A stretch of DNA of 35,203 nucleotides from Candidatus Omnitrophota bacterium (GTDB taxonomy: Bacteria > Omnitrophota > Gorgyraeia > Tantalellales > Tantalellaceae): contig JBHIBX010000001.1 of the NCBI GenBank assembly GCA_046759285.1, positions 1-35,203 of the forward strand, in the 5' to 3' direction. Every line of letters begins with the position of its first letter. Within the stretch, counting starts at the first letter, position 1. Under the pieces are notes generated by a model. It was not told where the DNA came from, ran no database searches, and was given only the letters and a program-made list of their open reading frames with translations. Below, one piece after another: positions 13,723-32,100 of this stretch. The translations under genes and the position numbers were made by a program.

Positions 13723-13728
13723 ACCTCA

Positions 13729-16907: not shown

Positions 16908-17837
16908 ATGGATAAGAAAGTAACAGTTGTTGGAGCCGGATTTGTGGGTTCTACTTGCGCTAGACGTATTATCGAAAAAGATCTGGCGGATGTTATACTG
17001 GTCGATATTGTGGAGGGTATGCCTCAGGGAAAGGCGCTTGACCTCATGGAGTCCGCCCCTATCGAATGCTTTCAAGCAAAGATCACCGGAACAAATGATT
17101 ACAGCCAGACGGCCAATAGCGATATTGTTGTTATCACTTCGGGGATACCGAGAAAGCCCGGAATGAGTAGAGATGATCTATTGCAGACGAACGCCAAAAT
17201 TGTGTGCGATGTTGTTAAAAATGTCGCCGCTTCAAGTCCGGAAGCCATTTTGATCATCGTTACAAATCCGCTGGATGTCATGAGTTACCTGGCGCTTAAG
17301 ATTTCCGGTTTCTCGCCCAGCAGAGTGATCGGGATGGCCGGAGTTCTTGATTCTGCCCGCTACCGGTATTTCATTGCCGAGGCGCTCGGAGTTTCCCCGC
17401 AGGATGTACAGGCAATGGTCCTTGGCGGTCACGGCGATTCAATGGTGCCCTTGCCGCGTTATTCCACTGTGGACGGCATTCCTGTTACGCAGCTTCTCCC
17501 CGGGAAGAAAATCGAGGAGATAAACGAAAGGACGAGAAAAGGTGGAGCCGAGATCGTCGGGCTTCTCAAGACCGGTTCTGCTTATTACGCCCCCTCAGCT
17601 TCGGCTACCGAGATGGTCAAAAGCATACTCAATAATGAAAACAAGATCTTGCCGTGTTGCGTTTATCTCAATGGAGAATACGGTCTGAAGGATGTATATT
17701 GCGGCGTGCCAACTAAACTTTCGCGTAAAGGGATTGAAGAGATCGTCGAGATCAAATTGACTGACGAGGAAAAGGCATCTCTTAAAAGGTCAAGCGATGC
17801 TGTAAAAGATAATATTAAAAAATTAAATTTGGGATGA
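16908..17837 (+). CDS. mdh: malate dehydrogenase (LDH-like family)
   Basis: VVGAGFVGS Rossmann motif, [14 protein letters not shown] with the Arg typical of MDH specificity, and the catalytic GGHGDS region. Confidence 0.88.
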
Positions 17838-17855
17838 AAATCAAACTGGAAATAG

Positions 17856-19004
17856 ATGCCGTCTGTAGAAACAAAAAATAAAGTAAAGTTTATTCAAGGA
17901 AATGAGGCTTGTGCTGAAGCCGCAATTGCCGCGGGAGTCACGTTTTTCGCGGGATATCCTATAACACCTTCCTCAGAGATCGCTGAAATTCTTTCTAAAC
18001 AGCTTCCTAAGATTGGCGGTAAGTTTATCCAAATGGAGGATGAAATCGCCAGTATAGGGGCTATTTTAGGGGCATCCTTAGCCGGGTTAAAAGTAATGAC
18101 CGCGACTTCCGGCCCCGGTTTTTCTTTAAAACAGGAGCTTATCGGGTTTGCGTCGTTGTGTGAAATCTCCTGCGTTATTGTAAACGTACAAAGAGGGGGG
18201 CCATCCACGGGCCTTCCGACATATCCGTCCCAGTCAGATGTAATGCAGGCTAGATGGGGTACCCATGGAGATCATCCGATAATTGTTCTTTCACCATCTT
18301 CTGTTTTGGAGACATATGAGTTGACTATTCAGGCAATAAACCTGACTGAAAGCTTGCGTGTTCCTGTCATTCTCCTGACAGACGAAGTCGTGGGGCATAT
18401 GTATGAGAAGGTGGAGTTTCCGGAAAAGGAAAGCTTGAAGTTATTAAGTCGCCCAGAGCCTAAAAAAATTTCCGGCAAAAAATATCTTCCCTTTGCGACA
18501 AGCTCTCCCAGGGATGTTCCGCGTATTGCTGATTTCGGGAAGGGTTTCCGTTTTAATGTCACGGGTCTCATCCATGATCTTGACGGGTTCCCGACGAATG
18601 AGCCGGATAAAACTGCAGCCCTACTTAACCGGTTACATGAAAAAATAAACTCGCGGATCAGGGATATATGTTTGTATGATAGCGAGGGGTTGGAGGAGTC
18701 TATAATTTTATGCTCTTACGGCGCTACAGCCAGGTCTTGCGTACAGGCCGCAAAAGAAGCTCGTAAAGCTGGAATTGGAGTTGGGGTTCTTAAGCTTAAA
18801 ACTCTCTGGCCTTTCCCTGATTTTATTTTTGATAACTTGAGGGGCAATAATAAGACTTTAATTGTTTGCGAGATGAATATGGGGCAGATTATTCGGGAAG
18901 TAGAACGGGCCTCAAAAGGACGCTTCAACGTTTTGGGCGTAAATTCTTCACGGGGCACCATGGTAACGCCCGCGGAGATACTGGATAAGATTAAAAGATG
19001 CTAG
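17856..19004 (+). CDS. korA: 2-oxoglutarate:ferredoxin oxidoreductase alpha subunit
   Basis: 382 aa. N-terminal GNEACAEAAIAAGVTFFAGYPITPSSEI motif of the 2-oxoacid:ferredoxin oxidoreductase alpha family. 2-oxoglutarate specificity is inferred from the sucCD/mdh context. Confidence 0.8.
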   Translation: MPSVETKNKVKFIQGNEACAEAAIAAGVTFFAGYPITPSSEIAEILSKQLPKIGGKFIQMEDEIASIGAILGASLAGLKVMTATSGPGFSLKQELIGFASLCEISCVIVNVQRGGPSTGLPTYPSQSDVMQARWGTHGDHPIIVLSPSSVLETYELTIQAINLTESLRVPVILLTDEVVGHMYEKVEFPEKESLKLLSRPEPKKISGKKYLPFATSSPRDVPRIADFGKGFRFNVTGLIHDLDGFPTNEPDKTAALLNRLHEKINSRIRDICLYDSEGLEESIILCSYGATARSCVQAAKEARKAGIGVGVLKLKTLWPFPDFIFDNLRGNNKTLIVCEMNMGQIIREVERASKGRFNVLGVNSSRGTMVTPAEILDKIKRC

Positions 19005-19819
19005 ATGAAATTCTAAAATATTTGAGGGTTGAAAAATTTCCGCATATTTGGTGCGCTGGATGCGGGCATGGGATTATTTTGCAGGCTTTTTTAAGAGCGG
19101 TTTTAGAGCTTGGCATTGATCAGGATAAATTGGTTGTTGCCTCCGGTATCGGGTGTTCTTCAAGGGCAGTAGGGTATATCAGTTTCGATACACTCCATAC
19201 CGCTCACGGTAGGGCCATGCCTTTTGCTACCGGCATAAAAATGGCCAATCCAGAACTAACTGTGGCTATACTTGCGGGGGACGGAGACATAGCAGCTATC
19301 GGAGGAAACCATCTGATACACACCGCCAGACGAAATATCGATATTACTACCGTGGTCTTTAACAATTTTAACTACGGCATGACCGGAGGGCAGTATTCGC
19401 CTACCACAGAGGAAGCTTTTTACGCTACTACTGCTCCTTACGGAAACATAGAACGGCCATTTGATTTGTGCACGCTGGCGAAAGCCGCGGGAGCCACTTA
19501 TGTCGCGCGTTCTACGACTTTTCACGCTCTTCAACTTCCAAAGCTCATCGCCGAAGGAATTAAACATCATGGTTTTTCAATTATAGAAGTCATTACTGGC
19601 TGCCCTACATATTATGGGAAATTTAATGAGATGAGCACTTCCGTTAAGATGCTTGAGTGGCAGAGAGACCACGCTGTAAATCTGAAGCAGTATCAAATGC
19701 TTTCGGAAGAAGAGAAGGAAGGTAAGTTCCCTATAGGATTGATTTATCAGGCTCACAGGCCCGAATACACGGATGAATATAATAAAATTATTAATAAGGC
19801 GAAAGAAGCGTCGCTTTGA
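18998..19819 (+). CDS. korB: 2-oxoglutarate:ferredoxin oxidoreductase beta (TPP-binding) subunit
   Basis: WCAGCGHG cluster motif and TPP motif GDGD...NN..YGMTGGQ. Confidence 0.85.
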   Translation: MLDEILKYLRVEKFPHIWCAGCGHGIILQAFLRAVLELGIDQDKLVVASGIGCSSRAVGYISFDTLHTAHGRAMPFATGIKMANPELTVAILAGDGDIAAIGGNHLIHTARRNIDITTVVFNNFNYGMTGGQYSPTTEEAFYATTAPYGNIERPFDLCTLAKAAGATYVARSTTFHALQLPKLIAEGIKHHGFSIIEVITGCPTYYGKFNEMSTSVKMLEWQRDHAVNLKQYQMLSEEEKEGKFPIGLIYQAHRPEYTDEYNKIINKAKEASL

Positions 19820-20393
19820 GCCTCCGACCGAGGCAGAGCGTTTTGAGATTACTCTGAGCGGATCGGGAGGCCAAGGAATGATCCTGGCGGGAAAGATACT
19901 TGCCGAGGCCGCTTCGATTTATGACAAAAAAGAAGCGGTTATGTCCCAGTCATATGGCCCTGAAGCAAGAGGCGGTGCGTCGAAGGCAGAAATCGTTATA
20001 AGTTCCGGCAGGATCGATTATCCTAAAGTCATGAAAGTTAATATACTGCTTGCCATGACACAAGAAGCCCTGGATAAGTACGGGAAATCATTGGGGCCTG
20101 AAGGCCTATTAATCGTAGATGAAACATTTATCAAGGAAGTTCCCGCTCGTTTCAAGAATGTTTTTAAAGCCCCATTTACTTCTCTGGCTATCAACCTGTT
20201 AGGCGCTCCCATAGTTGCCAACGTTATTGCTTTGAGTTTATTAGCCGCTATCACAAATATAGTTTCGAGAGAGGCATTGATACGCGCGGTGCTGGATCAC
20301 GTTCCCGACAAAGTTCTGGTATTGGATAGGATGGCAATTGACGCCGGGTTTAAAATTGCGGAAGACAGCGGTTTTAAGTGGAAACCGAGGTAA
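19773..20393 (+). CDS. korG: 2-oxoglutarate:ferredoxin oxidoreductase gamma subunit
   Basis: RFEITLSGSGGQGMILAGKIL and YGPEARGG motifs. The listed ATG overlaps korB by 47 nt, so the true start is uncertain. Confidence 0.8.
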   Translation: MNIIKLLIRRKKRRFEPPTEAERFEITLSGSGGQGMILAGKILAEAASIYDKKEAVMSQSYGPEARGGASKAEIVISSGRIDYPKVMKVNILLAMTQEALDKYGKSLGPEGLLIVDETFIKEVPARFKNVFKAPFTSLAINLLGAPIVANVIALSLLAAITNIVSREALIRAVLDHVPDKVLVLDRMAIDAGFKIAEDSGFKWKPR

Positions 20394-20397
20394 CAGG

Positions 20398-21525
20398 GTG
20401 AAAATACACGAGTATCAGGCGATGTCGCTATTCGACAAATACGGTATTAATACGGTTCAGTGTGAATTAACCGATCGGTCGGATAATGCCGGGGCAATAG
20501 CCGAAAAACTTGGTGGAAAGGTGGTTGTCAAAGCCCAGATCCTGGTCGGCGGACGGGGAAAAGCCGGCGGAGTAAAACTGGCGCGCACACCTGAAGAAGC
20601 CAGGAAAGCGGCGGAGAAGATCCTTTCAATGGAGATAAAATCTGAACCCGTCAAAAAAGTGCTGGTAGCCCAGGCAGTTGAAATTCAAGGTGAATATTAT
20701 CTTGGGATTACCGTTGACCGGGCGCTGAAAAGAATAGTGTTTATAGCGACCTCTGCCGGGGGCGTTGATATCGAGGAACTGGCTGAAAAAAGCCCCGAAA
20801 AAGTGTACAAGATGTATGTTGACCCCCTTGAAGGGCCGGATGAAACTGAATTGCGCAGTCTCGCGCAGGAAGTTTTTGAAAATCACGATCTTTTCAAAGA
20901 AGCCTGCGATACTATGCTCAGAATGTACAGGCTTTTGATTGAAAAAGACTGTTCTTTGGTTGAGATCAATCCATATGTTAAAGTTTCGCTTGATGGGCTT
21001 GTTGCGGTAGACGCGAAAATAAATTTTGATGATAACGGAGTAGTTAAACATCCCGACATCGAAGAACTAAGAAATCCTGAAGAATACAGCGCTGACGAAA
21101 TACGCGCCCAGGAAGCGGACTTAAGTTTTGTCAGCATGGATGGGAATATCGGCTGCATAGTCAACGGGGCTGGGCTGGCGATGGCGACGATGGATATTAT
21201 AAAATTGTTCGGCGGTGAGCCGGCAAATTTTCTTGATGTGGGCGGAAGCTCCAATCCGGCCAAAGTGCTCAATGCCCTAAAGATCATATTATCAAGCAGA
21301 AAAGTCAAAGCAATATTGATCAATATATTTGGCGGCATTACAAGATGTGATGATATCGCTAACGGTATCATCATGGCGACAAAACAGATCGACATAAATG
21401 TGCCGCTCATTATAAGGCTGATAGGGACAAATGAGACCGAGGGCAGGGACATACTTAAAAAGGCCGGTTTTGTAGTAGCGGAAGAAATGACTGAAGCTGT
21501 AAAGAAGGCAGTAGAGAGCATATGA
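20398..21525 (+). CDS. sucC: succinyl-CoA synthetase beta subunit
   Basis: GTG start giving [20 protein letters not shown]-grasp motifs and [18 protein letters not shown]. The listed start 20338 overlaps korG and is unlikely. Confidence 0.9.
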
Positions 21526-22388
21526 GCATTCTGGTTGGCGAGAATACAAAAGTTCTGATCCAGGGCATAACCGGACGTGATGGGTCATTCCACGCTCAGT
21601 CTATGCTTGACTACGGGACGAAGGTAGTCGGTGGGGTGACTCCCGGTAAAGGAGGTCAGAAAGTCGGCGCATTGCCCGTATTCAACACGATGAAAGAGGC
21701 GCGCGAGGCGACTGACGCGAATTGCTCCGTGATCTACGTCCCGGCGAAATTCGCCACCAGCGCCATCAGAGAAGCCGCTGATTGCGGCATAAAACTCATA
21801 GTTTGCATAACGGAGGGAATACCCGTCATTGAAATGATAGAAAATTATCAATACGTGAAGGATAAGAAGGCCCGGCTCATCGGGCCTAACTGCCCGGGCG
21901 TTATTACTCCCGGTAAGTGCAAGGTCGGGATAATGCCCGCTCGCATTCATGCCCCCGGAAATATCGGTGTAATATCCAGAAGCGGAACATTAACATATGA
22001 AGTTGTCTATAATCTGACAAAAAATAATATGGGACAGTCAACATGCATAGGCATAGGGGGAGACGCCATCGTCGGAACAGGATTCATTGACCTGCTCTCG
22101 ATGTTCGAGGAAGATAGCGGAACGGAGGCCACGGTTCTTATAGGCGAAATAGGCGGTGAAGAAGAAGAACAGACTGCTGATTATATACGGGCAAATATAA
22201 GAAAACCGGTTGTTTCTTTTGTTTCCGGAAGGTCGGCGCCGCCGGGTAAAAGAATGGGGCACGCGGGAGCGATCATCTCAAGAGGCAAGGGTACCGCCGA
22301 AGCGAAGATAAAAGCTTTTAAAAAGGCGGGCGTTCCTGTGGCTGACAGACCTGATGAAATACCGAAGTTATTAAAGGATTTGTTATAA
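21522..22388 (+). CDS. sucD: succinyl-CoA synthetase alpha subunit
   Basis: [20 protein letters not shown] and the phosphohistidine loop GHAGAII. Start overlaps the sucC stop. Confidence 0.92.
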
Positions 22389-22403
22389 AAAAGGAAGGTA
22401 ATC

Positions 22404-23552
22404 ATGGAAAATGTAAAAGATGAAGTAAAGATCGTCGACACCACTCTGCGAGACGGAGAACAGACCGCCGGGGTTGTTTTTTCAAACGACGAAAAAAGGA
22501 AAATCGCCGATCTTTTGGATGAGGCGGGTGTATATCAGATCGAGGCGGGTGTTCCCGCGATGAAAGGCGATGAAAAGCAGGCCATAAAAGACATCGTGAA
22601 GGATAATCACAAGGCCAGTATATTGGGATGGTGCCGCGCGGTATCCGATGATATCAGACAGGCTATCGACTGCGGCCTGGATGCCGTCTGCGTTTCCATA
22701 CCTGTTTCAGATGTCCATATCGAAAAAAAGCTGAAGAAAGACCGGAATTGGGTTCATGAAAATGTAGTCCGGGCCATTAATTTTGCTAAAAGCAACGGGC
22801 TTTACGTTTCCTGCAATGCCGAGGACGCTTCACGCACTAGAATGGAGGATCTAATCACTTTTGCCAGGATCGTTAAAGAAGCTGGGGCGGATCGTATGCG
22901 TTTTTGCGATACAGTAGGTATACTCGGCCCCGAGCAGACTGCAGAAAAGGTAAGGGCTCTGATACATGAGGTGGGGTTGACTATCGAGGTCCACGCGCAT
23001 AACGATTTCGGAATGGCAACTGCGAACAGCATCGCAGGCCTTAAATCCAGGGCTGAATTTGTCAGTGTTACTGTAAACGGATTGGGAGAGAGGGCGGGGA
23101 ATGCGGCTCTTGAAGAAGTTGTTATGGCGCTTAAATACGTTGAGGGGCGTGATATTTCTTTTAATATCTCAAAGTTAAAAGCATTGTCCGAGTTTGTTGC
23201 CAAGGCTTCGGGAAGAGAAGTGCCTGTAAGTAAGCCAATTGTCGGCAAGAATATATTTACACATGAAGCAGGTATCCAGGTCGATGGTCTTGTAAAAGAA
23301 CCGGAAACTTATGAAGTATTCCATCCTGCTGAGATAGGTGGAGAACGGCAGATTGTAATAGGGAAGCACTCAGGGAAAAACGCTGTAAAGATGAAGTTTA
23401 GGGAATTTGGTATTGATATAGATGATGAAATGGCAAAAAATATATTAAATGCTGTCAGAAAAAAGGCCGTAGAAGTTAAACGCCCTTTATTTGATAAAGA
23501 GCTTATGTACATATATTACAGTGAGACCAAAGAATTTGATAAGACGGATTAA
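22404..23552 (+). CDS. short HMGL-family synthase (NifV/AksA-type homocitrate, citramalate or second Re-citrate synthase); substrate unassigned
   Basis: DTTLRDGEQ, HAHNDFGMATANS and NGLGERAGNAALEE motifs. 382 aa with no LeuA-type regulatory domain. Stop overlaps the sdhA start (TAATG). Confidence 0.75.
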   Translation: MENVKDEVKIVDTTLRDGEQTAGVVFSNDEKRKIADLLDEAGVYQIEAGVPAMKGDEKQAIKDIVKDNHKASILGWCRAVSDDIRQAIDCGLDAVCVSIPVSDVHIEKKLKKDRNWVHENVVRAINFAKSNGLYVSCNAEDASRTRMEDLITFARIVKEAGADRMRFCDTVGILGPEQTAEKVRALIHEVGLTIEVHAHNDFGMATANSIAGLKSRAEFVSVTVNGLGERAGNAALEEVVMALKYVEGRDISFNISKLKALSEFVAKASGREVPVSKPIVGKNIFTHEAGIQVDGLVKEPETYEVFHPAEIGGERQIVIGKHSGKNAVKMKFREFGIDIDDEMAKNILNAVRKKAVEVKRPLFDKELMYIYYSETKEFDKTD

Positions 23553-25240
23553 TGAAACAGGAAATTATCATTGTAGGCAGTGGTCTGGCGGGAATGCGGG
23601 CGGCGATTGCTGCAGGATACAAAGGAATAAAATGTATGGTCATTTCTTTGGTTTATCCTGTCAGGTCACACTCTGTAACCGCACAAGGTGGGATCAACGC
23701 CTCGCTTAAGAATGTTGACAAAAACGATTCCTGGGAAAAACACGCTTTTGAAACGGTAAAAGGAAGCGACTACCTTGCTGATCAAAAAGCGGTAACTATT
23801 CTTACTAAAAAAGCGGTTTCTTCTGTCTGTGAATTGGAAAAGTGGGGCGCACCTTTTTCCCGTACCACAGAGGGACGGATCAATCAGCGCCCTTTTGGGG
23901 GAGCGGCTTTTCCCCGCACCTGTTACGCCGAGGACAGAACCGGTCATAATCTCCTCCATACTTTATATCAGCAATGCTTACGCCACAAAGTCCCTTTTTT
24001 AGATGAATGGATGGTAGTTGAGCTTATTGTGAAAGACAACCGTTGTCTGGGGGTAGTGGCATTAAACTTAAAATCGGGGGAAATAGAGGCCATACCGACA
24101 AAAGCGGTAATTATGGCTACCGGAGGAGCGGGAAGGATTTACGCTCAGTCAACTAATGCCCTTATCAACAGCGGCACAGGTATTGCTCTAGCCTATAGAG
24201 CGGGTGTGGGCGCAAAAGATATGGAATTTGTGCAGTTTCATCCTACCTCTCTCTACGGAACGAATATCCTTAGTACTGAAGGGGCCCGGGGTGCAGGAGG
24301 ATATCTTTTAAATAAAAACGGCGAGCGGTTCATGAAGAACTATGCCCCTCATCTTATGGAGCTCGCCCCGAGAGACATAGTAGCACGTGCGATTAAAACC
24401 GAGATACTTGAAGGCAGGGGCATTGAAGACGCTTATGTATATCTTGATCTAAGGCATCTGGGGGAAGACAAGATAAATGAAAAGTTGCCGGGCATAAGAG
24501 AAATAGGGATAAGGTTTGCTGGTATAGATGCGGTTGAAGCCCCTTTACCTGTTCAACCCGGACAACATTACACAATGGGTGGAATTGATTGCGATATTAA
24601 CTGCCAAACTTCTGTTCCCAACCTCTTTGCAGCGGGAGAGTGTTCGTGCGTTTCTGTTCATGGGGCCAACAGGTTAGGAGGAAATTCTCTTATGGAGACA
24701 GTTGTTTTCGGCAGGATTGCCGGAGAGAATGCTGCCCAATGCTGCCATGAGATTGAATACAAAGAGGATGCGGATGCGCTCTTTAGTTCTATGAATGAAA
24801 ACGAGAAAAGGATCTCTTCTCATTTTACTTCAAAAGGGAAAGAAAGAGTGGGAAAATTGCGCAAAAAGTTAAGAGAATTAATGATAGAGAAGGTAGGCAT
24901 TTTTCGCAAGGAAAGCGAACTAAAAGAAGCAATTGAAGAAATAAAAGAAATCAGGAAAAGGTATAAAGCAGTATCTTTAACAAGTTCAGGGAAGAAATTT
25001 AATTTGGAATTAATCACTGCTTTAGAGGTGGAATGCATGATTGATCTGGCACTGGTGATAGGGGAAGGAGCTTTAAAAAGAGAGGAGAGCCGTGGTTCGC
25101 ATTTTCGTACCGATTTTCCGAAGCACGACGATAAAAACTGGCTTAAACATACTCTTGCTCATTATACGTCCGATGGCCCGGAACTTTCTTATAAGGAAGT
25201 TGACCTATCTACCTGGCAACCGAAAGAAAGAAAATATTGA
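23552..25240 (+). CDS. sdhA: succinate dehydrogenase / fumarate reductase flavoprotein subunit
   Basis: GSGLAG FAD motif. RSHSVTAQGGINA carries the His used for covalent FAD. Also HPTS...TEGARGAGGYLLN, HYTMGGI, and ESRGSHFRTDFPKHDDKNWLKHT. Confidence 0.88.
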   Translation: MKQEIIIVGSGLAGMRAAIAAGYKGIKCMVISLVYPVRSHSVTAQGGINASLKNVDKNDSWEKHAFETVKGSDYLADQKAVTILTKKAVSSVCELEKWGAPFSRTTEGRINQRPFGGAAFPRTCYAEDRTGHNLLHTLYQQCLRHKVPFLDEWMVVELIVKDNRCLGVVALNLKSGEIEAIPTKAVIMATGGAGRIYAQSTNALINSGTGIALAYRAGVGAKDMEFVQFHPTSLYGTNILSTEGARGAGGYLLNKNGERFMKNYAPHLMELAPRDIVARAIKTEILEGRGIEDAYVYLDLRHLGEDKINEKLPGIREIGIRFAGIDAVEAPLPVQPGQHYTMGGIDCDINCQTSVPNLFAAGECSCVSVHGANRLGGNSLMETVVFGRIAGENAAQCCHEIEYKEDADALFSSMNENEKRISSHFTSKGKERVGKLRKKLRELMIEKVGIFRKESELKEAIEEIKEIRKRYKAVSLTSSGKKFNLELITALEVECMIDLALVIGEGALKREESRGSHFRTDFPKHDDKNWLKHTLAHYTSDGPELSYKEVDLSTWQPKERKY

Positions 25241-28026
25241 TGGCAGCAAGTAAAGTAAATTTCAGAATAAGAAGGTTTGATCCCGAAAAAGATAAGAGCG
25301 AATATGCTTTCTATGAAATTCCCCATGTGAAGGGGATGACAGTTTTGGAAGGCTTGTGGTACATAGTGGACAATATAGATGGCAGTTTAAGTTTTCGCTA
25401 TTCCTGTCGGGGGGCGGTCTGTGGATCCTGCGCAATGAAGATTAACGGGGTAATCGATCTTGCATGTCATATTCAGATTTCCTCTCTGCTTCCAGGAGTG
25501 ATTAACGTTGAACCTCTTCCTTATTTTACGGTTATAAAAGACCTTGTTGTGGATATGGAACCCTTTCTGGAAAAATTTAATTCCATTAAACCTTATTTTT
25601 CCAAGATTAAGACAGAAGGCGGAGAAAATCTTCAAACTCCACAGGATCGAAAAAAAATAGAAAAAGCAGTTACTTGTATTTTATGCGCTGCTTGTCATTC
25701 GGCATGCCCGTTAAACGCGATGGATGAAGATTATCTCGGACCGGCGACTCTTACCGCAGTCAATAGGTTTGCTATGGATAGTCGCAGCACCGGCTGCAAG
25801 GATCGTATTTTAAACATCAGTAATCTGGGAGATTTTGGGGGATGTATGAAGATCTCCAGATGTTCAAAGGTGTGCCCCAGGGATATCGAGCCTGCCGAAC
25901 GCATCGATGAAATTAAGCAGTGCGTTTCTTCCTTTCAGCCGCCTTCGGCCGAGAAAGTCAACACTGTCTGCGGTTTTTGCTCTGTAGGGTGCGGGTTAAC
26001 CATTTGGAAAAACGAGGATGGTACTTTGCAACTGACAACCGATTCAGATTATACCGTAAATAAAGGCCAGGCCTGTCCAAAGGGATGGGACGCCCTACTG
26101 CCATTACAGGCAAAAGACCGCGCGAGAACTCCTTATACGAGAAACAGCAAAGGGGATTTTGTGCCTGTAGACTGGGATGAAGCTTTGCAAAAATTTACCG
26201 ATAGTTTTAAAAATATCCAAGAGAAATATGGCAATGATTCTATAGCCTTTATAAGTACGGGCCAAATCCCTACCGAAGAGATGGCTTTTCTTGGATGCTT
26301 GACAAAATTTGGAATGGGAATTCTTCATGGTGACGGTAACACCCGCCAGTGCATGGCTACAGCGGCTGCTGCATATAAGCAATCATTTGGTTTTGATGCG
26401 TCGCCTTATACTTATAAGGATTTTGAAGAGTCTGATGTGATTATCTTTGTTGGAGGGAATCCTTTTATCGCGCATCCTATCATGTGGGAAAGAGTATGTT
26501 TGAATGAAAATAATCCGACAACTGTTATTATAGATCCCCGAAAAACGGAAACCGCTCACTGGGCAAGCAAACATCTCAGCATCATTCCCAAATCAGATGC
26601 TTCTCCTTTTTACTGTCTTGCCCATATTCTTATCAAGCGCGACGCTGTTGATAAAAGTTTTATTGACAATCATACTTCCGGTTTTGAGGAGTTTAAAGAA
26701 TTCCTCGAGAAATTTTCTCCTAAAACTGTAAGTAAAGAAACAGGGCTGAAAGAATCCGAGATCCATAAATTGGCGGATTTAATACAAAACGGCAGAAAAG
26801 TTTCCTTTTGGTGGACGATGGGGGTCAATCAGAGTTATATGGGAGTGAGGACGGCTCAGGCAATCATCAACCTCACTCTTCTTACGGGGAACATAGGACG
26901 AGCCGGGACAGGTCCTAATTCCATTACCGGTCAATGTAATGCCATGGGTTCTCGGCTTTTCAGCAATACTACATCTCTATTAGGCGGACATGACTTTTCC
27001 AACTCTGAACATAGAAAAAAGATTGCAAAATGTCTGGGAATAAAGGAGAAACAAATTCCGGAAGACAAAGGATGGGCTTACGATCAAATTGTCGATGGTA
27101 TTGCTGAAGGTAAGATCAAAGGTTTGTGGATAATCGCCACTAATCCGATACATTCCTGGGTAAATCATTCTCATCTTGAGAAAGTCATAGGAAATCTTGA
27201 ATTTTGCGTGCTTCAGGATATGTACCATACTACTGAAACTGCTAAGTATGCACATTTAGTTCTTCCGGCTGCAGGATGGGGAGAGAAAAGAGGGACGTTT
27301 ATCAATTCTGAAAGAAGGATCGCTGTCGTGAATAAAGCGGCTGATCCTCCAGGAGAAGCTTTACCCGATTTTGAAATTTTTAAACACGTTGCCGATTACT
27401 GGGGTTGCGGGGATCTTTTCGAAAAATGGGATTCAACCGAGGATATATTTCAATCCTTAAAAAGGATATCAAAAGGGACTCCCGCTGATATAAGCGGAAT
27501 AAAAGATTATAAAATGCTTGAGAAAAGCGGTGGAATACAATGGCCCTTTCCTGAAGGCAGTTCAATTAAAGAAAATGAACGTCGTTTATTTGAAGACAGA
27601 AAGTTTTACACTCCCGATAAGAGGTCTAAGTTTATTTTTGAAGATATCAAATCTCCTCCAGAGCCAGTTAATAAAGAATTTCCGTTTTTGCTTTTAACCG
27701 GCAGAGGAACTGTCGCCCAATGGCATACCCAGACCAGAACCAGCAAATCCGATCGACTTAAGAAAATATATCCGGAAGAAATTTACATGGAAATCAACCC
27801 CGAAGACGCTGAAAAGTTGAATATCAATGACGGTGAAGAGGTAACTGTTTCCTGTTGTCGAGGGGAAATAAGGGTTAAGGCGTGTCTGACCTATGATATT
27901 CCTGGAGGAGAAGTTTTTGTACCCATGCATTATAGCGAAACAAATGAATTGACTTTTCCAGCGTTTGATCCTTATTCAAGACAACCGTCTTATAAAAGTT
28001 GTGCGGTAAATATAATAAGTCCTTGA
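25237..28026 (+). CDS. fusion protein: SdhB/FrdB-type iron-sulfur subunit (aa 1-228) joined to a cytoplasmic Nas/NarB/Nap-type molybdopterin oxidoreductase (aa ~245-929)
   Basis: The N-terminal part has CRGAVCGSC...C (2Fe-2S), CILCAACHSACP and CMKISRCSKVCP. From aa 245 there is CGFCSVGCG...C (Mo-enzyme 4Fe-4S), NTRQCMATAAAAYKQSFG (Cys Mo ligand, no His as in FDH), and a LLLTGRGTVAQWHTQTRT C-terminal barrel. No Tat signal. One uninterrupted ORF, with an ATGA overlap onto sdhA. Confidence 0.8.
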   Translation: MMAASKVNFRIRRFDPEKDKSEYAFYEIPHVKGMTVLEGLWYIVDNIDGSLSFRYSCRGAVCGSCAMKINGVIDLACHIQISSLLPGVINVEPLPYFTVIKDLVVDMEPFLEKFNSIKPYFSKIKTEGGENLQTPQDRKKIEKAVTCILCAACHSACPLNAMDEDYLGPATLTAVNRFAMDSRSTGCKDRILNISNLGDFGGCMKISRCSKVCPRDIEPAERIDEIKQCVSSFQPPSAEKVNTVCGFCSVGCGLTIWKNEDGTLQLTTDSDYTVNKGQACPKGWDALLPLQAKDRARTPYTRNSKGDFVPVDWDEALQKFTDSFKNIQEKYGNDSIAFISTGQIPTEEMAFLGCLTKFGMGILHGDGNTRQCMATAAAAYKQSFGFDASPYTYKDFEESDVIIFVGGNPFIAHPIMWERVCLNENNPTTVIIDPRKTETAHWASKHLSIIPKSDASPFYCLAHILIKRDAVDKSFIDNHTSGFEEFKEFLEKFSPKTVSKETGLKESEIHKLADLIQNGRKVSFWWTMGVNQSYMGVRTAQAIINLTLLTGNIGRAGTGPNSITGQCNAMGSRLFSNTTSLLGGHDFSNSEHRKKIAKCLGIKEKQIPEDKGWAYDQIVDGIAEGKIKGLWIIATNPIHSWVNHSHLEKVIGNLEFCVLQDMYHTTETAKYAHLVLPAAGWGEKRGTFINSERRIAVVNKAADPPGEALPDFEIFKHVADYWGCGDLFEKWDSTEDIFQSLKRISKGTPADISGIKDYKMLEKSGGIQWPFPEGSSIKENERRLFEDRKFYTPDKRSKFIFEDIKSPPEPVNKEFPFLLLTGRGTVAQWHTQTRTSKSDRLKKIYPEEIYMEINPEDAEKLNINDGEEVTVSCCRGEIRVKACLTYDIPGGEVFVPMHYSETNELTFPAFDPYSRQPSYKSCAVNIISP

Positions 28027-28039
28027 GGAATGTGATGTC

Positions 28040-29341
28040 ATGTATAGCTTAAAAGGCAGTCCAAAAGAAGGGTTCTGGGGAGCAACATTAGGCTTTTTTA
28101 TAGGCTTTGCGGCTGTTTCTTTATTCGGTCCGGCAGCGGCGAAGTTTAAGGATGCCATGCAGTTGAGTCCGGTAATGGTCGGGATATTAGTGGCGATGCC
28201 GTCTTTATCCGGTTCTATTCTGCGTATTCCTTTCTCTGCCTGGGTAGATACCACCGGGGGAAGAAAGCCTTTTCTTGTTCTCCTTGCTTTTTCCATCATA
28301 GGGATGTTAGCTTTATCTTTAGTAATTTTTATCCTTTATCCCGACCATCTCAATGTACATTTTTATCCGCTTCTGCTTTTATTGGGGCTATTGAGCGGAT
28401 GCGGTATTGCTACATTTTCCGTAGGCATAAGTCAAGTTTCCTACTGGTTTCCTCAAAAAAGGCAGGGCACGGCTTTAGGAACTTATGCCGGGATTGGCAA
28501 TATTGCGCCCGGAGTGTTTTCATTTCTTCTTCCCATAGCTCTTAGAGGATTAGGGTTGGGAGGGGCATATCTTGCATGGCTTATATTTTTGGTAGCAGGA
28601 ACCGGTCTTTATTTTATGATGGGCAAAAACGCTTGGTATTTTCAGCTGCGCTATCAGGGGGCATCACCTGATGAGGCAAAAAATATCGCCGCTAAAAATG
28701 GGCAGGAAGTCTTTCCCGCAGGAAGTCTTACCGAGAGTCTTTTGCTTTCAGCTAGGACACGGAAAACCTGGATTCTTGTGGCAGTTTATTTTACTACTTT
28801 TGGAGGATTCATTGCCCTTACTGCATGGCTACCAATTTATTGGAAATCGTTTTATAATGTAACTATAGTAAACGCGGGTTTCTTAACTGCTCTTTATTCT
28901 ATTCTTACTTCTGTGATCCGTATCGGCGGGGGTGTTATTTCTGATAAATTTGGGGGAGAGAGAACGGCTATTTTATCTCTTTTTGTTATGTTGATCGGAG
29001 CCATTTTGATGACCCTATCACGCAATTTCAGACTCTCTGTATTTGCCGAAATCCTGATGGCGGTGGGAATGGGAGTAGGTAATGCCGCTGTGTTTAAACT
29101 GGTCCCACAGAAAATCCCTCAAGCGATAGGCGGAGCAGCCGGATGGGTCGGAGGCTTGGGGGCATTGGGAGGATTTGTTGTACCTCCTTTAATGGGGTCT
29201 TTTGTCCGCATATCTGGGATCAATGGTTATGCCCAGGGGTTTTCTGTGTTTATCATTTTAGGGCTTATCTCTATTATTGTTGTAAGCATTTTAAGCGGAG
29301 GCATGGAAGGTGAAGATATCACGCAAAGAAGCGCAGAGTAA
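28040..29341 (+). CDS. narK: MFS nitrate/nitrite porter (NarK/NNP family)
   Basis: 12 TM segments. SGSILRIPFSAWVDTTGGRKPF resembles the E. coli NarK SGALLRVPYSFMVPIFGGRR region. GMGVGNAAVFKLVP is the NNP-type signature. Confidence 0.75.
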   Translation: MYSLKGSPKEGFWGATLGFFIGFAAVSLFGPAAAKFKDAMQLSPVMVGILVAMPSLSGSILRIPFSAWVDTTGGRKPFLVLLAFSIIGMLALSLVIFILYPDHLNVHFYPLLLLLGLLSGCGIATFSVGISQVSYWFPQKRQGTALGTYAGIGNIAPGVFSFLLPIALRGLGLGGAYLAWLIFLVAGTGLYFMMGKNAWYFQLRYQGASPDEAKNIAAKNGQEVFPAGSLTESLLLSARTRKTWILVAVYFTTFGGFIALTAWLPIYWKSFYNVTIVNAGFLTALYSILTSVIRIGGGVISDKFGGERTAILSLFVMLIGAILMTLSRNFRLSVFAEILMAVGMGVGNAAVFKLVPQKIPQAIGGAAGWVGGLGALGGFVVPPLMGSFVRISGINGYAQGFSVFIILGLISIIVVSILSGGMEGEDITQRSAE

Positions 29342-29711
29342 GTTCATAGTAAAAATTGAAGAACTCAGCGGGGAAAATATCTATAAATGCTACCAGTGCG
29401 GAAAGTGTTCCGCCGGCTGTCCTATTGTTGGTCACATGGATATCCTGCCCAACCAGATCATCCGTTTGATCCAGCTTGGCTCTGAAAAAGAAGTGCTGGA
29501 TTCCAAGACCATCTGGCTTTGTTCAAGCTGTTTGCAGTGCGCCGCTAAGTGCCCCAAAGGCGTGGATGTGGCCAAGATAATGGATACCCTGAGAGAGGTA
29601 TTAAAAAGAGAAGGGGTAGACAAGGTGGAGCTTAAAAAAATAGCCGAAAAGATGTGGAAGAAGCTGCCCCAGCAGTTGATCGTTTGCAGGTTTCGTAAAA
29701 GTAGTGATTGA
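29310..29711 (+). CDS. hdrC: heterodisulfide reductase subunit C-like 4Fe-4S protein
   Basis: CYQCGKCSAGCP and CSSCLQCAAKCP motifs with the HdrC-type spacing. GTG start with GGAGG upstream. Overlaps the narK 3-prime end by 32 nt. Confidence 0.8.
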   Translation: MKISRKEAQSKFIVKIEELSGENIYKCYQCGKCSAGCPIVGHMDILPNQIIRLIQLGSEKEVLDSKTIWLCSSCLQCAAKCPKGVDVAKIMDTLREVLKREGVDKVELKKIAEKMWKKLPQQLIVCRFRKSSD

Positions 29712-29740
29712 AAAATTGACTTTTAACACAGGAGGAGAAA

Positions 29741-29887
29741 ATGGAGAAAGAAAAATGTAAAAAAAAGACCCTTGTGATTGACAAGGAAGAGAAAGCCAAA
29801 AAGAATGATAAAAAGGAGTGGAAGAAGCCGACTCTCGAGGATGTGTCCGGAAGGGTGATGGCACAGCCGTATATCAGATTCACCTAA
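29741..29887 (+). CDS. 48-aa PqqA-like precursor peptide (candidate RiPP/cofactor precursor); not in the supplied ORF track
   Basis: Manual translation gives MEKEKCKKKTLVIDKEEKAKKNDKKEWKKPTLEDVSGRVMAQPYIRFT. GGAGGAG (29731-29737) lies 3 nt before the ATG. The gene sits directly upstream of a PqqD-family gene and a radical SAM gene. Confidence 0.7.
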   Translation: MEKEKCKKKTLVIDKEEKAKKNDKKEWKKPTLEDVSGRVMAQPYIRFT

Positions 29888-29962
29888 TCTGTGTCATAGT
29901 GGAAGACAAGAGGTAAATTGACGTATGCTGTAAGTCATGGTCTCATTGAAAGGGGTGTCCTC

Positions 29963-30214
29963 ATGCAATTCGAGAAACATGTGAAAGTACGTAAGGAGAA
30001 GTTTGGAGCAGTGATTTTTGAAACATTGCGCGAGAAAGTGCTCATAACAAATGAAACAGGCGCGGAAATATTGAGTCTACTTGAAGGGGGAAAGGAGTCA
30101 AAGGATTTAATTACTGACTTGAATGAAAATTATAACGGTGATACATCGACGATCGAGAACGATGTGGAGGAGTTCGTTTCGATGTTGAGAGGCAAAAATA
30201 TAATCAAAAGTTAG
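29963..30214 (+). CDS. PqqD-family peptide-binding protein (RiPP recognition element)
   Basis: About 83 aa. FGAVIFETLREKVLITNETGAEILSLLEG...DVEEFVSMLRGKNII follows the PqqD winged-helix pattern. The ATG at 29963 has AAAGGGG upstream; the listed TTG at 29918 is less likely. Confidence 0.75.
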   Translation: MQFEKHVKVRKEKFGAVIFETLREKVLITNETGAEILSLLEGGKESKDLITDLNENYNGDTSTIENDVEEFVSMLRGKNIIKS

Positions 30215-30222
30215 GAGAAAAA

Positions 30223-31206: not shown

Positions 31207-32081
31207 CAGGATTAATAAAGCTTATTCGATACAGGTTTTTATTAATTGCGGGTCTTCTGCCTTATTGCCTTGGGTCAGCAGTCGCGTTTTATTTCCGTGG
31301 GGAATTTAGTCCTTTTTTGTTTCTTGTGGGTCTGGCAGGTCTTTTTTTTGTACTGGTCGGTGTTGAGGCTTTCAATGAATTTTTCGACTGGCAACTTGGA
31401 ACAGACCGAGTGTTCCAAGTAGATCCCAAACCGGTGACTAAGAGCACTTTTTTTGTTGGCATTGTTGCTTTTTTTATTGCTCTAATTGTTGCCATTTTTC
31501 TGACGTTGAAGTTAGGTGTGGCGATAATTATACTTTCAGTTATTGGATTCTTCGCGGCTCTATTTTATCTTGGACCACCGATCAAGTTGGCGTATCGTGG
31601 GTTTGGGGAAATTACGATTTCGCTTTCTTATGGTCCCTTTATGATGATGGGAAGTTATTATGTTCAGACACAGCGCATAGATGTTCTGCCGCTTTTTGTA
31701 TCGGTAGTTCCCGCACTTCTTTTATTTGCGATATCGATACTGAATGAAGTACCAGACTATTTTTCCGATAGGCTTGTCGGCAAGCGGAACATATGCGTGA
31801 GAATCGGGCAAAAGAATGTAATGAAATTGTATGGAGGAGTTTTGATTCTCTTTTATGCAATTTTAATGATAGGGTTATTTTTAGGAAACTTTCCACGCCT
31901 GACTTTGCTTGCACTGGTTTGTTTACCAATTTCATTGATAACTTATACCATTGGGATCCGAGCATGTGAAAACCCATATAGGTTCATTTCGACGATTCGC
32001 AGCGGCATAATTCAATATGTTATTATCCTTAGTATATTTATTACGGGTTACATAGTTGACAAACACTTTTACGCGCCTTAA
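31191..32081 (+). CDS. UbiA-superfamily (MenA-like) membrane aromatic prenyltransferase
   Basis: About 8-9 TM segments. First Asp-rich motif NEFFDWQLGTD and second motif NEVPDYFSDRLVGKRN (compare MenA N-D-x-x-D...G-x-D and D-x-x-S-D-R-x-x-G-K). Overlaps the radical SAM gene by 16 nt. Confidence 0.8.
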   Translation: MERTLTGLIKLIRYRFLLIAGLLPYCLGSAVAFYFRGEFSPFLFLVGLAGLFFVLVGVEAFNEFFDWQLGTDRVFQVDPKPVTKSTFFVGIVAFFIALIVAIFLTLKLGVAIIILSVIGFFAALFYLGPPIKLAYRGFGEITISLSYGPFMMMGSYYVQTQRIDVLPLFVSVVPALLLFAISILNEVPDYFSDRLVGKRNICVRIGQKNVMKLYGGVLILFYAILMIGLFLGNFPRLTLLALVCLPISLITYTIGIRACENPYRFISTIRSGIIQYVIILSIFITGYIVDKHFYAP

Positions 32082-32100
32082 CGTGATTTAAGAGAATTAA

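Follow-up and report, generated by a model that had tools for sequence, protein, structure and literature searches.

Organization of the locus

The 35,203-nt stretch of DNA analyzed here (the window) carries sdhA, a gene in which sdhB is fused to a molybdoenzyme, and a transporter gene, preceded by a run of TCA-cycle genes. The features, with the evidence for each, are as follows:

16908..23552, + strand: TCA-cycle gene run, upstream context (Pfam, NCBIfam)
23552..25240, + strand: sdhA, flavoprotein subunit, 562 aa (TIGR01812, PDB alignments, motifs)
25240..28026, + strand: sdhB::nas fusion gene, 928 aa, NCBI MFQ5951807.1 (ORF, Pfam, homologs P0002–P0008)
25240..25941, + strand: SdhB/FrdB module, aa 1–234 (NF004616, TIGR00384, alignments to 1kf6_B and 8gs8_B)
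25942..25968, + strand: junction/linker, about aa 232–243 (motif spacing, AF2 model)
25951..26088, + strand: FS0 [4Fe-4S] domain of the Mo enzyme (PF04879; ligand columns invariant)
26119..28005, + strand: Mo-bisPGD catalytic and dinucleotide-binding domains (PF00384, PF01568)
28040..29341, + strand: narK-family nitrate/nitrite MFS transporter, 433 aa (NarU/NarK PDB alignments)
29310..29711, + strand: HdrC-like 2x[4Fe-4S] protein, uncertain member (ORF overlaps the narK end)

Our view of this genome is one 35-kb contig from a metagenome-assembled genome; other parts of the genome may carry another sdhB, an anchor gene not linked to this unit, or a gene for nitrite reductase. The upstream run consists of mdh, three genes for a 2-oxoacid:ferredoxin oxidoreductase, sucC, sucD and a NifV-type (homo)citrate synthase-like gene, with intergenic gaps of 0–20 nt. 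Translation of the fusion from ATG gives 928 residues, and from an alternative TTG at 25237 gives 929. The stop/start overlap between sdhA and the fusion described in the initial annotation is present, but its sequence is TGATG, with 1 nt in common (TTGA with the TTG start), rather than ATGA.

Redox modules of SdhA and the fusion protein

SdhA scored 792.7 bits against TIGR01812 (cut-off 567) and aligned with PDB 6lum_A (518 bits) and E. coli SdhA (484 bits), with the catalytic residues in register. The covalent-FAD histidine expected from the initial annotation was found as His40 (RSHSVTAQGG), and the set of dicarboxylate-site residues is complete, with the FHPT, RDIVAR, HYTMGG and GANRLG motifs present. 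Gln45 is of the SdhA type, and Gln occupies the corresponding position of HSVxAQGG in 7/7 SdhAs examined; Gln in this motif has been linked to efficient succinate oxidation (rule summarised in PMC4145680).

In the SdhB part of the fusion, Pfam placed Fer2_3 at residues 8–111 and Fer4 at 146–217 (929-aa numbering), and scores exceeded the cut-offs of both NF004616 (239.8 bits; cut-off 228) and TIGR00384 (223; cut-off 88). The module carries a 2Fe-2S motif CRGAVCGSCAMKINGVIDLAC (ligands C56, C61, C64, C76), a 4Fe-4S motif CILCAACHSACP (ligands C146, C149, C152 and C212) and a 3Fe-4S type motif CMKISRCSKVCP (ligands C156, C202, C208), and these cysteines are invariant across the homologs aligned. 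Both E. coli FrdB and human SDHB were matched end to end, up to query residue 234; the top PDB match was E. coli FrdB (170 bits), with 138 bits for E. coli SdhB. Judged by these alignments the SdhB part is complete, as originally proposed. The Trp and His of the SdhB ubiquinone site are replaced in the fusion by Ala160/Met161 and Met203.

The remainder of the protein contains Molybdop_Fe4S4 (240–283), Molybdopterin (295–720) and Molydop_binding (817–923) domains, in the same 929-aa numbering. The FS0 motif CGFCSVGC...C279 supplies ligands C244, C247, C251 and C279 and is accompanied by Lys281; the FS0 columns are invariant in the fusions and in stand-alone Nas proteins. The Mo ligand lies in Cys371-Met372 (RQC371M, nt 26350–26355), an ITGQCNAMG motif is present, and the Cys-Met and ITGQ columns are likewise invariant in the alignment. 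Relative to formate dehydrogenase 9t1s_L, C-M replaces U-H and T replaces R: whereas formate dehydrogenases have Sec/Cys-His and R-G-Q, the Mo site of the fusion has Cys-Met and I-T-G-Q, as in Nap/Nas enzymes. Foldseek comparison of the Mo domain with D. desulfuricans NapA gave TM values of 0.89–0.90. The domain is 58–63% identical to stand-alone enzymes of 720–750 aa, and its homologs bear nitrate reductase names; one close stand-alone homolog is encoded in a nas operon alongside NirA, PII, MFS, MobA and MoaA, and annotated nitrate reductases from nirBD clusters are among the matches. The NCBIfam nitrate-reductase equivalog cut-offs were not reached by the Mo part, the slightly higher and top score being that of the formate dehydrogenase alpha model TIGR01591 (516.7 bits, under its cut-off of 666), and the best PDB sequence matches are formate dehydrogenases. 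Because the top NCBIfam model is a formate dehydrogenase, the nitrate assignment rests on motifs and close homologs rather than on the profile scan. These support a Nas/NarB-type domain that groups with nitrate reductases, in agreement with the initial reading of a nitrate-type enzyme and not a formate dehydrogenase. Both halves of the fusion keep all cofactor ligands and catalytic residues.

Since the SdhB alignment runs to residue 234, the linker comprises only about 6–12 residues ahead of FS0 Cys244, in agreement with its earlier placement at nt 25921–25968. Stand-alone enzymes have an N-terminal segment of ~45 residues ahead of FS0, and in the fusion SdhB stands in its place. In 13/13 fusion proteins, 87–88 aa separate the first 4Fe-4S motif from the initial Cys of FS0, so that junction length is constant within one residue while its sequence varies. 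In the AF2 model (pLDDT 87.4 and pTM 0.85 for the entire chain), the SdhB helix extends to residue 231 and the FS0 strand begins at 238, with pLDDT of 75–85 between them. By spacing and model, the junction is rigid and constant in length.

Recurrence, neighborhood and relatives

The fusion is real: it is one ORF and recurs in 13 sequences (8 clusters at 90% identity, 55–68% identical) drawn from NCBI, ENA, JGI and Logan and representing at least 10 independent assemblies. Full-length homologs P0002–P0008 are 55–68% identical to the protein studied here, and GC content of the fusion loci ranges from 44 to 57%. A search for the architecture, suggested with the initial annotation, recovered a single cluster (50% identity) in a set of 1.84 billion representatives, and a single species out of the 185,579 in GTDB. 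At the level of sequence databases it is therefore very rare, essentially unique. The other in silico checks suggested at that stage were, where run, all favorable, and in the literature we found no description of a succinate:nitrate oxidoreductase of this kind.

At every locus sdhA lies directly 5′ of the fusion, with overlapping stop and start codons. The only PDB matches of the downstream transporter were NarU and NarK, aligned over the full length with the two conserved Arg residues and the two nitrate-signature motifs in register, which bears out its designation as a NarK-type porter. Orthologs of narK (55–73% identical) lie downstream of the fusion at loci L004/L010, L005, L007 and L008/L009, and 5 of the 7 lineages have narK after the fusion; at L001, an HPP-family protein adjoins sdhA instead. 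Aconitase and citrate synthase genes flank the unit at L005. The HdrC-like gene is absent from L001, L004 and L005, and across the loci compared the fusion has neither a ferredoxin nor a flavodoxin gene as a conserved neighbor. By gene content and order this is a rare conserved three-gene unit, predicted to encode a soluble SDH half, a cytoplasmic nitrate reductase and a nitrate/nitrite transporter.

The window contains no SdhC/D-type anchor gene, as stated in the initial annotation, which had however missed a CCG/HdrB-like gene 3 kb downstream (32101–32988) that resembles the type-E anchor SdhE and is not kept at other loci. Against the methylmenaquinol:fumarate reductase SdhE anchor model this gene reached 170 bits (cut-off 500), HdrB was an equally good match, and the gene after it is HdrA2-like (793 bits); for these reasons it resembles a member of an Hdr-like set. 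At L001, L004/L010 and L005, neither SdhC/D nor CCG genes were found, and the surroundings of the fusion in L001, L004/L010, L005, L006 and L007 lack CCG and small multi-TM genes. The organism encodes quinone-linked modules, an NrfD-like and a UbiA/MenA-like protein, and is thus not quinone-free. The hosts look anaerobic (Asr, Psr/Phs-like and Hdr-like genes).

The nearest stand-alone SdhBs (50–58% identical to the SdhB module) belong to anchor-less sdhA-sdhB-flavodiiron protein operons at 4/4 loci with readable context. One NJ tree, computed without support values, places them as sister to the module and separate from anchor-linked SdhBs. This suggests that the SdhAB clade repeatedly partners high-potential cytoplasmic reductases; nitrate reductase and flavodiiron O2/NO reductase are both obligate high-potential acceptors, which fits SdhAB as a donor. 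The anchor-less sister clade and the SdhA-type Gln in all SdhA partners add support beyond the initial annotation.

Proposed function and comparison with known systems

SdhA and SdhB::Nas probably form a soluble, cytoplasmic, quinone-independent succinate:nitrate oxidoreductase. Succinate would be oxidized to fumarate at the covalent FAD of SdhA, and two electrons would pass along SdhB from [2Fe-2S] through [4Fe-4S] to [3Fe-4S]. In ordinary complex II, electrons leave the 3Fe-4S cluster for quinone in the membrane anchor; here they would instead move to FS0 of the fused reductase, presumably within tunnelling distance, and on to Mo-bisPGD, where nitrate would be reduced to nitrite. NarK would import nitrate and probably export nitrite, which would be either exported or reduced elsewhere. 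The potentials of succinate/fumarate (about +30 mV) and nitrate/nitrite (about +420 mV) point to electron flow from succinate to nitrate. FS0 and Mo centre potentials of NarB-type enzymes are low, about −150 to −190 mV in Synechococcus NarB, and succinate electrons would therefore face an uphill intermediate step, of a kind that Nap enzymes tolerate.

Joining of two genes by sequencing error is a negligible concern, even for a metagenome-assembled contig: nt 25900–25990 are in continuous frame, with neither a stop codon nor a frame change. We rejected this explanation on finding the in-frame junction at equal length in 13 sequences of 55–68% identity, from at least 10 independent assemblies and four data sources. 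It is unlikely that SdhAB is a fumarate reductase within a ferredoxin- or flavodoxin-fed dual terminal reductase, in which an external low-potential donor would dock on the Fe-S chain, as with NarB, and electrons would go either to Mo (nitrate) or via SdhB to FAD (fumarate). The closer PDB match to FrdB than to SdhB (170 vs 138 bits), the anaerobic look of the hosts, the 2-oxoacid:ferredoxin oxidoreductase in the window, which would supply reduced ferredoxin, and the NarB-like character of the close stand-alone homologs, normally fed by small redox proteins, would all suit such an enzyme. However, with SdhB in place of the ~45-residue segment ahead of FS0, the surface where donors usually dock is probably blocked. 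Every SdhA examined has the SdhA-type Gln, and conserved ferredoxin or flavodoxin genes are lacking next to the fusion. In the sister clade SdhAB is paired with another pure acceptor, and a conserved operon with two acceptors and zero donors would be an unlikely design.

We consider it quite improbable that the proteins belong to a membrane-bound, quinone-linked complex II with its anchor (SdhC/D or CCG-type SdhE) encoded elsewhere, Nas being an extra electron exit or an entry for quinol electrons. In complex II structures the anchor docks on the SdhB C-terminal face, and here the Mo domain, joined within about 10 residues of that terminus, would sterically replace the anchor. The quinone-site Trp and His are missing, and anchor-linked SdhBs belong to other clades. 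The UbiA/MenA-like and NrfD-like genes do indicate a quinone pool, our view is limited to a 35-kb piece, an HdrC-like gene directly follows narK, and the CCG/HdrB-like protein matches the SdhE model; that match, though, is far under the cut-off and equalled by HdrB, the next gene is HdrA2-like, and no such gene lies near the fusion at the other loci listed above. A substrate other than nitrate, either another oxyanion or formate (giving a soluble formate:fumarate oxidoreductase), is very unlikely. TIGR01591 and formate dehydrogenases head the NCBIfam and PDB matches, and we know of no characterised Nas-type enzyme in the exact subclade; but the TIGR01591 score is below the family cut-off, the Sec/Cys-His pair and active-site Arg have given way to Cys-Met and Thr as in Nap/Nas, the 58–63% identical homologs are named nitrate reductases (one beside NirA in a nas operon), and the conserved NarK-family neighbor has the nitrate-signature residues.

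For the succinate:nitrate oxidoreductase, the most likely role would be to let succinate oxidation proceed within an oxidative TCA cycle in anaerobes with a low-potential menaquinone, a poor acceptor for succinate electrons; nitrate would be the dedicated electron sink. The enzyme may also be purely assimilatory. If the proposal is true, uncultured anaerobes would burn succinate with nitrate, bypassing membrane quinones, an activity new to the literature.

NarB-like enzymes normally use small redox proteins as donors. Among Mo-domain homologs, lengths reach 1100–1700 aa, and a nirBD cluster contains a nitrate reductase of 1178 aa. Fusion of a Nas catalytic subunit to its dedicated donor, or a side-by-side position of their genes, is a recurring arrangement, as in Flp-NasC (PMC4724949), and the SdhB::Nas fusion would follow the same pattern.

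The fusion gene and its modules

Every long open reading frame of the 35.2-kb contig, which belongs to a Candidatus Omnitrophota metagenome-assembled genome, lies on the plus strand. The genes of the unit considered here are as follows.

23552–25240, plus strand: sdhA, 562 aa, directly before the fusion
25240 (ATG)–28026, plus strand: sdhB::nas fusion, a single uninterrupted ORF of 928 aa (NCBI MFQ5951807.1)
28040–29341, plus strand: MFS (NarK-family) transporter gene, 3′ of the fusion

Pfam domains of the 928-aa protein run in the order Fer2_3, 4Fe-4S dicluster region, Molybdop_Fe4S4, Molybdopterin and Molydop_binding. Among 5.8 billion clustered proteins searched there were seven more full-length fusions (927–954 aa, 55–68% identical), giving 13 distinct sequences once cluster members were counted; the assemblies behind them are from NCBI, ENA (TARA Oceans included), JGI and Logan, and the GC content of the fusion loci checked is 44–57%. 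In every locus with readable flanks sdhA ends at or on the start codon of the fusion. The initial annotation had described an ATGA overlap here, which was an error: stop and start share one base as TGATG. The distance from the first 4Fe-4S motif to the first Cys of FS0, the N-terminal [4Fe-4S] cluster of the Mo domain, is 87–88 residues in 13/13 fusions, and the linker sequence varies. Because the same in-frame junction with constant spacing recurs in these 13 sequences, a missed stop or frameshift can in practice be excluded; the single continuous SdhB-Mo gene first described therefore stands, and on comparative sequence grounds we take the fusion to be genuine and maintained by selection.

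A database check for the same architecture, proposed along with that description, found these homologs and showed the arrangement to be very rare. When 1.84 billion representatives at 50% identity were scanned exhaustively with HMMER, one cluster was the sole full-length match, all remaining matches being limited to residues ~237–925 of the fusion, and a pattern scan with junction-spanning alignment of 185,579 GTDB species representatives found one species (fusion locus L010). The public name of the protein encoded at 25240–28026 (P0001, MFQ5951807.1) is only 'succinate dehydrogenase iron-sulfur subunit'; this name omits the nitrate reductase domain, so that name-based metabolic reconstructions enter it as a standard complex II and overlook the nitrate reductase.

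SdhA scores 792.7 against a cut-off of 567 (TIGR01812, SdhA/FrdA subfamily), aligns best with M. smegmatis Sdh (6lum_A) and E. coli SdhA, and retains the covalent-FAD His40 together with the dicarboxylate-site residues of FHPT, RDIVAR, HYTMGG and GANRLG. Gln occupies its position in HSVxAQGG in all seven SdhAs examined. As summarised in PMC4145680, E. coli SdhA has Gln and E. coli FrdA has Glu at this position, and its exchange shifts catalytic efficiency towards the opposite direction. The SdhB module scores 239.8 against a cut-off of 228 for NF004616 and 223 against 88 for TIGR00384. Its 234 residues, at the N-terminus of the fusion, match E. coli FrdB and the human and porcine SDHB proteins from one end to the other, FrdB being the top PDB match, and the eleven cluster cysteines of the 2Fe-2S, 4Fe-4S and 3Fe-4S motifs are all present and invariant. 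The two SdhB residues that contact ubiquinone in SQRs are replaced (Ala160/Met161 align with WW and Met203 with His of human SDHB), a criterion that is weak alone, as E. coli FrdB also has neither the Trp after the first Cys motif nor the His after the first 3Fe-4S Cys. In an AF2 model of the whole chain (pLDDT 87.4, pTM 0.85) the final SdhB helix ends at residue 231, the first strand of the FS0 domain starts at 238, and the first FS0 Cys is C244.

The Mo domain has the Pfam set PF04879, PF00384 and PF01568 and invariant C244, C247, C251, C279 and K281 (the CxxCxxxC...C motif and a conserved Lys); a signal peptide or Tat signal is absent from the fusion, its N-terminus being taken up by SdhB. 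NCBIfam scores are ambiguous between formate dehydrogenase (FDH) and Nas, each lying under its cut-off (FDH-alpha, TIGR01591, 516.7 vs 666.25; NasC, 464 vs 1100; NasA_Halo, 451 vs 1000). Cys371-Met372 (RQC371M), the Mo-ligand Cys and the Met after it, aligns with U-H of the formate dehydrogenase 9t1s_L, FDHs having Sec/Cys-His there, and in the I-T-G-Q of ITGQCNAMG it is Thr that aligns with the catalytic Arg of the R-G-Q of the same enzyme. The Mo domain thus has neither the Sec/Cys-His nor the active-site Arg of FDHs, and scores below TIGR01591; RQCM and ITGQ-type motifs occur in 13/13 fusions. Nap and Nas enzymes have Cys-Met and TGQ at these positions, which agrees with D. desulfuricans NapA as the best monomeric structural match (TM 0.89–0.90, Foldseek against PDB); in that search the Mo fold is NapA/FDH-like, and no template was found for the domain arrangement of the fusion.

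Hundreds of stand-alone proteins of 720–750 aa, many of them named nitrate reductase, are 58–63% identical to this domain. They carry a conserved segment of ~45 residues before FS0, where SdhB stands in the fusions. One homolog, P0035 from Elusimicrobia, is encoded in a textbook nas operon (LysR, PII, MFS, NirA-type, PII, Fe-S/DmsC, Nas, MobA, MoaA); replicons of cultured bacteria contributed annotated nitrate reductases among the matches listed, one of them in a nirBD-MFS-nas cluster. Active-site motifs, homologs and the operon of P0035 together uphold the original assignment of the Mo domain to the Nas type.

Several of these homologs have features of their own. Directly before Nas in the Elusimicrobia operon (L033:6277-10217) is a 558-aa Fer4_11 Fe-S plus DmsC-like membrane protein, which may serve an assimilatory nitrate reductase as a quinol-linked donor in the membrane. 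The Nas homolog P0009 (932 aa, 98 member sequences) has a C-terminal extension of ~200 residues that resembles the start of a second molybdopterin-oxidoreductase domain and may reflect duplication or read-through. On the Chondrinema litorale plasmid NZ_CP111059.1 (L122:6992-10528), a 1178-aa annotated 'nitrate reductase' in a nirBD-MFS-nas-rubredoxin-siroheme cluster is a further Nas catalytic domain with a large fused extension, and Mo-domain homologs of 1100–1700 aa were also found.

Transporter, neighbouring genes and membrane anchor

The only PDB relatives of the transporter, in full-length alignment, are NarU and NarK. LRIPFS, IRIGGGVISDKFGG, GTYAGIGNIA and GWVGGLGALGGFVVP align with their NarU equivalents and comprise two conserved Arg (TM2, TM8) and two Gly/Asn-rich nitrate-signature motifs; the TIGR00886 score is 182.1, under the cut-off of 311.7. 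With orthologs (55–73% identical) 3′ of the fusion in 5/7 lineages, the NarK-type porter noted at the start is confirmed. At the marine fusion locus L001 (TARA) an HPP-family membrane protein, of a nitrite-transporter family, adjoins sdhA instead of narK. There, L001:6443-8187 encodes this protein and an Old-Yellow-Enzyme-type flavoprotein directly upstream of sdhA, and the neighbouring MFS gene is no NarK homolog.

In the window the unit ends a tight run of mdh, 2-oxoacid:ferredoxin oxidoreductase, sucCD, a NifV-type (homo)citrate-synthase-like gene, sdhA, the fusion and narK; at fusion locus L005, aconitase and citrate synthase genes lie downstream. The NifV-type homocitrate synthase gene (22404–23552, between sucD and sdhA) scores 493.6 bits, above the TIGR02660 cut-off of 462.9. 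No nif genes are in sight around it, and it may be a Re-type citrate synthase. Elsewhere, 14861–16624 encodes a 587-aa protein in which an HMGL-like catalytic domain of the homocitrate/isopropylmalate synthase type is joined to a Cache/PDC sensor at the C-terminus, an unusual pairing.

No nirA or nirBD gene was found within 10 kb of the fusion in any of the seven fusion loci. The window holds asrA, asrB and asrC (11106–14700), encoding an anaerobic sulfite reductase, with an FNT-family channel gene (12949–13722) between asrB and asrC, which resembles the known sulfite reductase/hydrosulfide channel arrangement. This cluster was considered as the missing nitrite reductase and rejected, AsrA and AsrC passing the NCBIfam sulfite-reductase equivalog cut-offs; the NIR_SIR protein of the window is AsrC itself. 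A second molybdoenzyme system at 1417–10336 comprises NrfC/TtrB-like Fe-S, NrfD-like membrane and PhsA/PsrA-like catalytic (912 aa) subunits, followed by a TorD-like chaperone, TatC and the Moco genes mobA, moaA, moaC, MOSC and moaB/mog; the organism therefore has quinone-linked sulfur-compound respiration. An Rfam scan of the window gave no match, and a promoter/terminator scan gave signals not clearly above shuffled controls.

Neither a small multi-TM gene nor a CCG gene stands beside the unit in fusion loci L001, L004/L010, L005, L006 and L007, in agreement with the lack of an SdhC/D anchor reported for the window. There, a CCG/HdrB-like gene (32101–32988) lies 3 kb downstream, with HdrC-like and HdrA2-like genes on either side; its scores as HdrB and as SdhE are equal and far under both cut-offs. 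As a type-E anchor it is an unlikely candidate, since the other loci lack it and it belongs, on our reading, to a separate Hdr-like set. The stretch concerned (29310–35203) encodes HdrC-like, PqqD-like, radical-SAM/SPASM maturase, UbiA/MenA-like prenyltransferase, HdrB/CCG-like and HdrA2-like (793 bits) proteins, so arranged that the peptide-maturase/prenyltransferase trio splits the Hdr-like set, and the contig ends within a second HdrC-like ORF.

Flavodiiron-linked relatives and the predicted electron path

A search with the SdhB part alone, which missed the fusion proteins themselves and is thus of no use for excluding other SdhB::X fusions, returned stand-alone SdhBs up to 60% identical to it. 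The four with readable context (50–58% identical), which are the nearest stand-alone relatives of the SdhB module, all lie in anchor-less sdhA-sdhB-flavodiiron operons.

L036:6481-10086, sdhA-sdhB-flavodiiron operon
L037:3630-7230, sdhA-sdhB-flavodiiron operon
L038, around 6001, sdhA-sdhB-flavodiiron operon
L120:6314-9941, sdhA-sdhB-flavodiiron operon

Their flavodiiron proteins have Lactamase_B, ODP and Flavodoxin(_1) domains, and nearby genes encode Rrf2 regulators, rubrerythrins, hybrid-cluster protein or fumarase, which suggests succinate-driven O2/NO reduction. A metagenome scan added 80 further loci. In metagenome and genome scans, SdhBs at most 48% identical belong to ordinary complex II, with two small three-TM genes upstream or with fumarase, malic enzyme or cytochrome bd adjoining. 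In a neighbour-joining tree of SdhB (no support values) the fusions group as a single clade whose sister is the flavodiiron-linked clade, and anchor-linked SdhBs fall apart from both; one stand-alone SdhB, P0273, is placed inside the fusion clade, its contigs being too short to show a partner. SdhAs of fusion and flavodiiron loci are 60–70% identical. Since nitrate reductase and O2/NO reductase are both obligate high-potential acceptors, SdhAB as donor is the simplest common logic. We tentatively suggest, with rather less than even confidence, that the fusion is the most explicit member of an unrecognised branch of complex II, in which anchor-less soluble SdhABs would serve as succinate-driven donors for high-potential cytoplasmic reductases (nitrate reductase by fusion, flavodiiron O2/NO reductase by operon), the electrons bypassing the membrane.

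In the predicted path, electrons would pass from succinate to FAD in SdhA, through the [2Fe-2S], [4Fe-4S] and [3Fe-4S] clusters of the SdhB module, and on to FS0, Mo-bisPGD and nitrate. Known structures show electrons leaving SdhB for the anchor through the 3Fe-4S cluster, on the same face as the SdhB C-terminus; a Mo partner fused ~6–12 residues past this C-terminus must therefore occupy the anchor face. The first element of the fused partner is its own entry cluster, FS0. Textbook potentials give a driving force of ~390 mV from succinate to nitrate. NarK would bring nitrate in and probably carry nitrite out.

Judged from gene content, we favour an electron-sink role, in which the succinate step of the oxidative TCA cycle would run without quinone; the run of TCA genes, the aconitase and citrate synthase genes of L005 and the lack of an adjacent nitrite reductase gene all point this way. 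An assimilatory role is possible, because nirA can be unlinked from narK-nas operons, in which NarK has been implicated in nitrite export (PMC4724949).

The same enzyme might instead be a dual fumarate/nitrate reductase fed by ferredoxin. That FrdB is the top PDB match of the SdhB module speaks for such a scheme, but the face on which a donor would dock is probably occupied, SdhA carries the Gln, and the sister clade is linked to flavodiiron proteins; we regard it as unlikely. Linkage to quinone through an anchor encoded elsewhere draws on the fact that a single contig is all that is at hand of this genome, yet such a complex is improbable on steric and comparative grounds, and we give it a low probability.

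That the Mo site acts on a substrate other than nitrate seems very unlikely, as the active-site motifs, the context of the homologs and narK oppose it. An artefact of assembly or annotation has a negligible chance of accounting for the gene, being excluded by recurrence of the same junction. A soluble succinate:nitrate oxidoreductase is the reading that we carry forward.

Novelty and comparison with known systems

Searches of the full-text literature turned up no published account of an SdhB-molybdoenzyme fusion, of a nitrate reductase dependent on succinate or of an operon joining SdhAB to a flavodiiron protein, and no EC entry is known to us for a soluble enzyme in which electrons go from succinate to nitrate. 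The parts are known (SdhA/SdhB of complex II, NarB/Nas-type nitrate reductase, NarK); the combination and the predicted activity were found nowhere in the literature searched. Text matches to 'sdhB' in PMC4724949 proved to be 'sdHb', single-domain haemoglobin.

A soluble succinate:nitrate oxidoreductase would be a new enzyme activity and would give anoxic waters and sediments a new, non-respiratory route from nitrate to nitrite. Among the TCA steps, succinate oxidation alone yields electrons of too high a potential to reduce NAD+ or ferredoxin; in textbooks it is tied to membrane quinone, and with low-potential menaquinone it is endergonic. If the two succinate electrons go directly to nitrate, O2 or NO, anaerobes with low-potential or no quinones could run succinate to fumarate and hence a complete oxidative TCA cycle, a simple account of how some uncultured anaerobes close the cycle. 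The gene fusion serves as a natural 'Rosetta stone', naming the donor for a Nas-type enzyme, and the sister sdhAB-flavodiiron operons suggest that the principle extends to O2/NO detoxification. The significance would be larger if the anchor-less SdhAB clade is a general succinate-driven donor for cytoplasmic reductases.

With complex II (SQR/QFR) the unit shares the covalent-FAD His and dicarboxylate residues of SdhA, the three-cluster ligands of SdhB and the order sdhA-sdhB. Unlike complex II, it has neither an anchor nor quinone-site residues, its SdhB C-terminus runs into a second catalytic enzyme, and its predicted acceptor is nitrate rather than quinone. The Mo part resembles NarB, NasA and NasC, monomeric cytoplasmic Mo-bisPGD enzymes with one [4Fe-4S] cluster, in domain set, lack of a Tat signal, Cys-Met and TGQxNA. 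It differs from them in having a 234-aa SdhB module in place of the N-terminal ~45 residues, in equivalog scores below the cut-offs, in the lack of an adjoining nitrite reductase gene (7/7 loci), and in its predicted donor, succinate via SdhA as against ferredoxin, flavodoxin or an NAD(P)H flavoprotein.

Methanogen TfrAB (NF004900/NF004898) is likewise soluble, anchor-less and quinone-independent, with an SdhB-like subunit fused C-terminally to a second catalytic module. The likeness is one of design only: the fused module here is Mo-bisPGD, not CCG (HdrB-like), and the fusion matches positions 3–209 of the 488-aa TfrB profile with a score of 154 against a cut-off of 385. In TfrAB, as Heim et al. 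reportedly described in 1998, the CCG module oxidises CoM-SH and CoB-SH and electrons run towards fumarate, whereas those of the fusion are predicted to leave succinate. In the alpha subunit of FdsA/FdhA-type NAD-dependent FDHs and in NuoG, too, a chain of Fe-S domains before FS0/Mo links Mo to a flavoprotein, and these proteins are the top full-length Foldseek matches (7vw6_A, TM 0.71). The N-terminal parts, however, do not superpose (rmsd 13.6 Å, Foldseek), the Fe-S domains are of SdhB Fer2_3 rather than NuoG type, and flavoprotein partner and substrates differ. Among Nas systems, B. japonicum narK-bjgb-flp-nasC unites narK, nas and a donor flavoprotein in one operon (PMC4724949), and M. smegmatis NasN is a case of a diflavin Nas donor, as cited in PMC7816997. 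The fusion unit resembles these systems in that catalytic subunit and donor are fused or encoded side by side, and differs in that the predicted donor is an SdhA flavoprotein with a three-cluster Fe-S subunit rather than an NAD(P)H-dependent flavoprotein.
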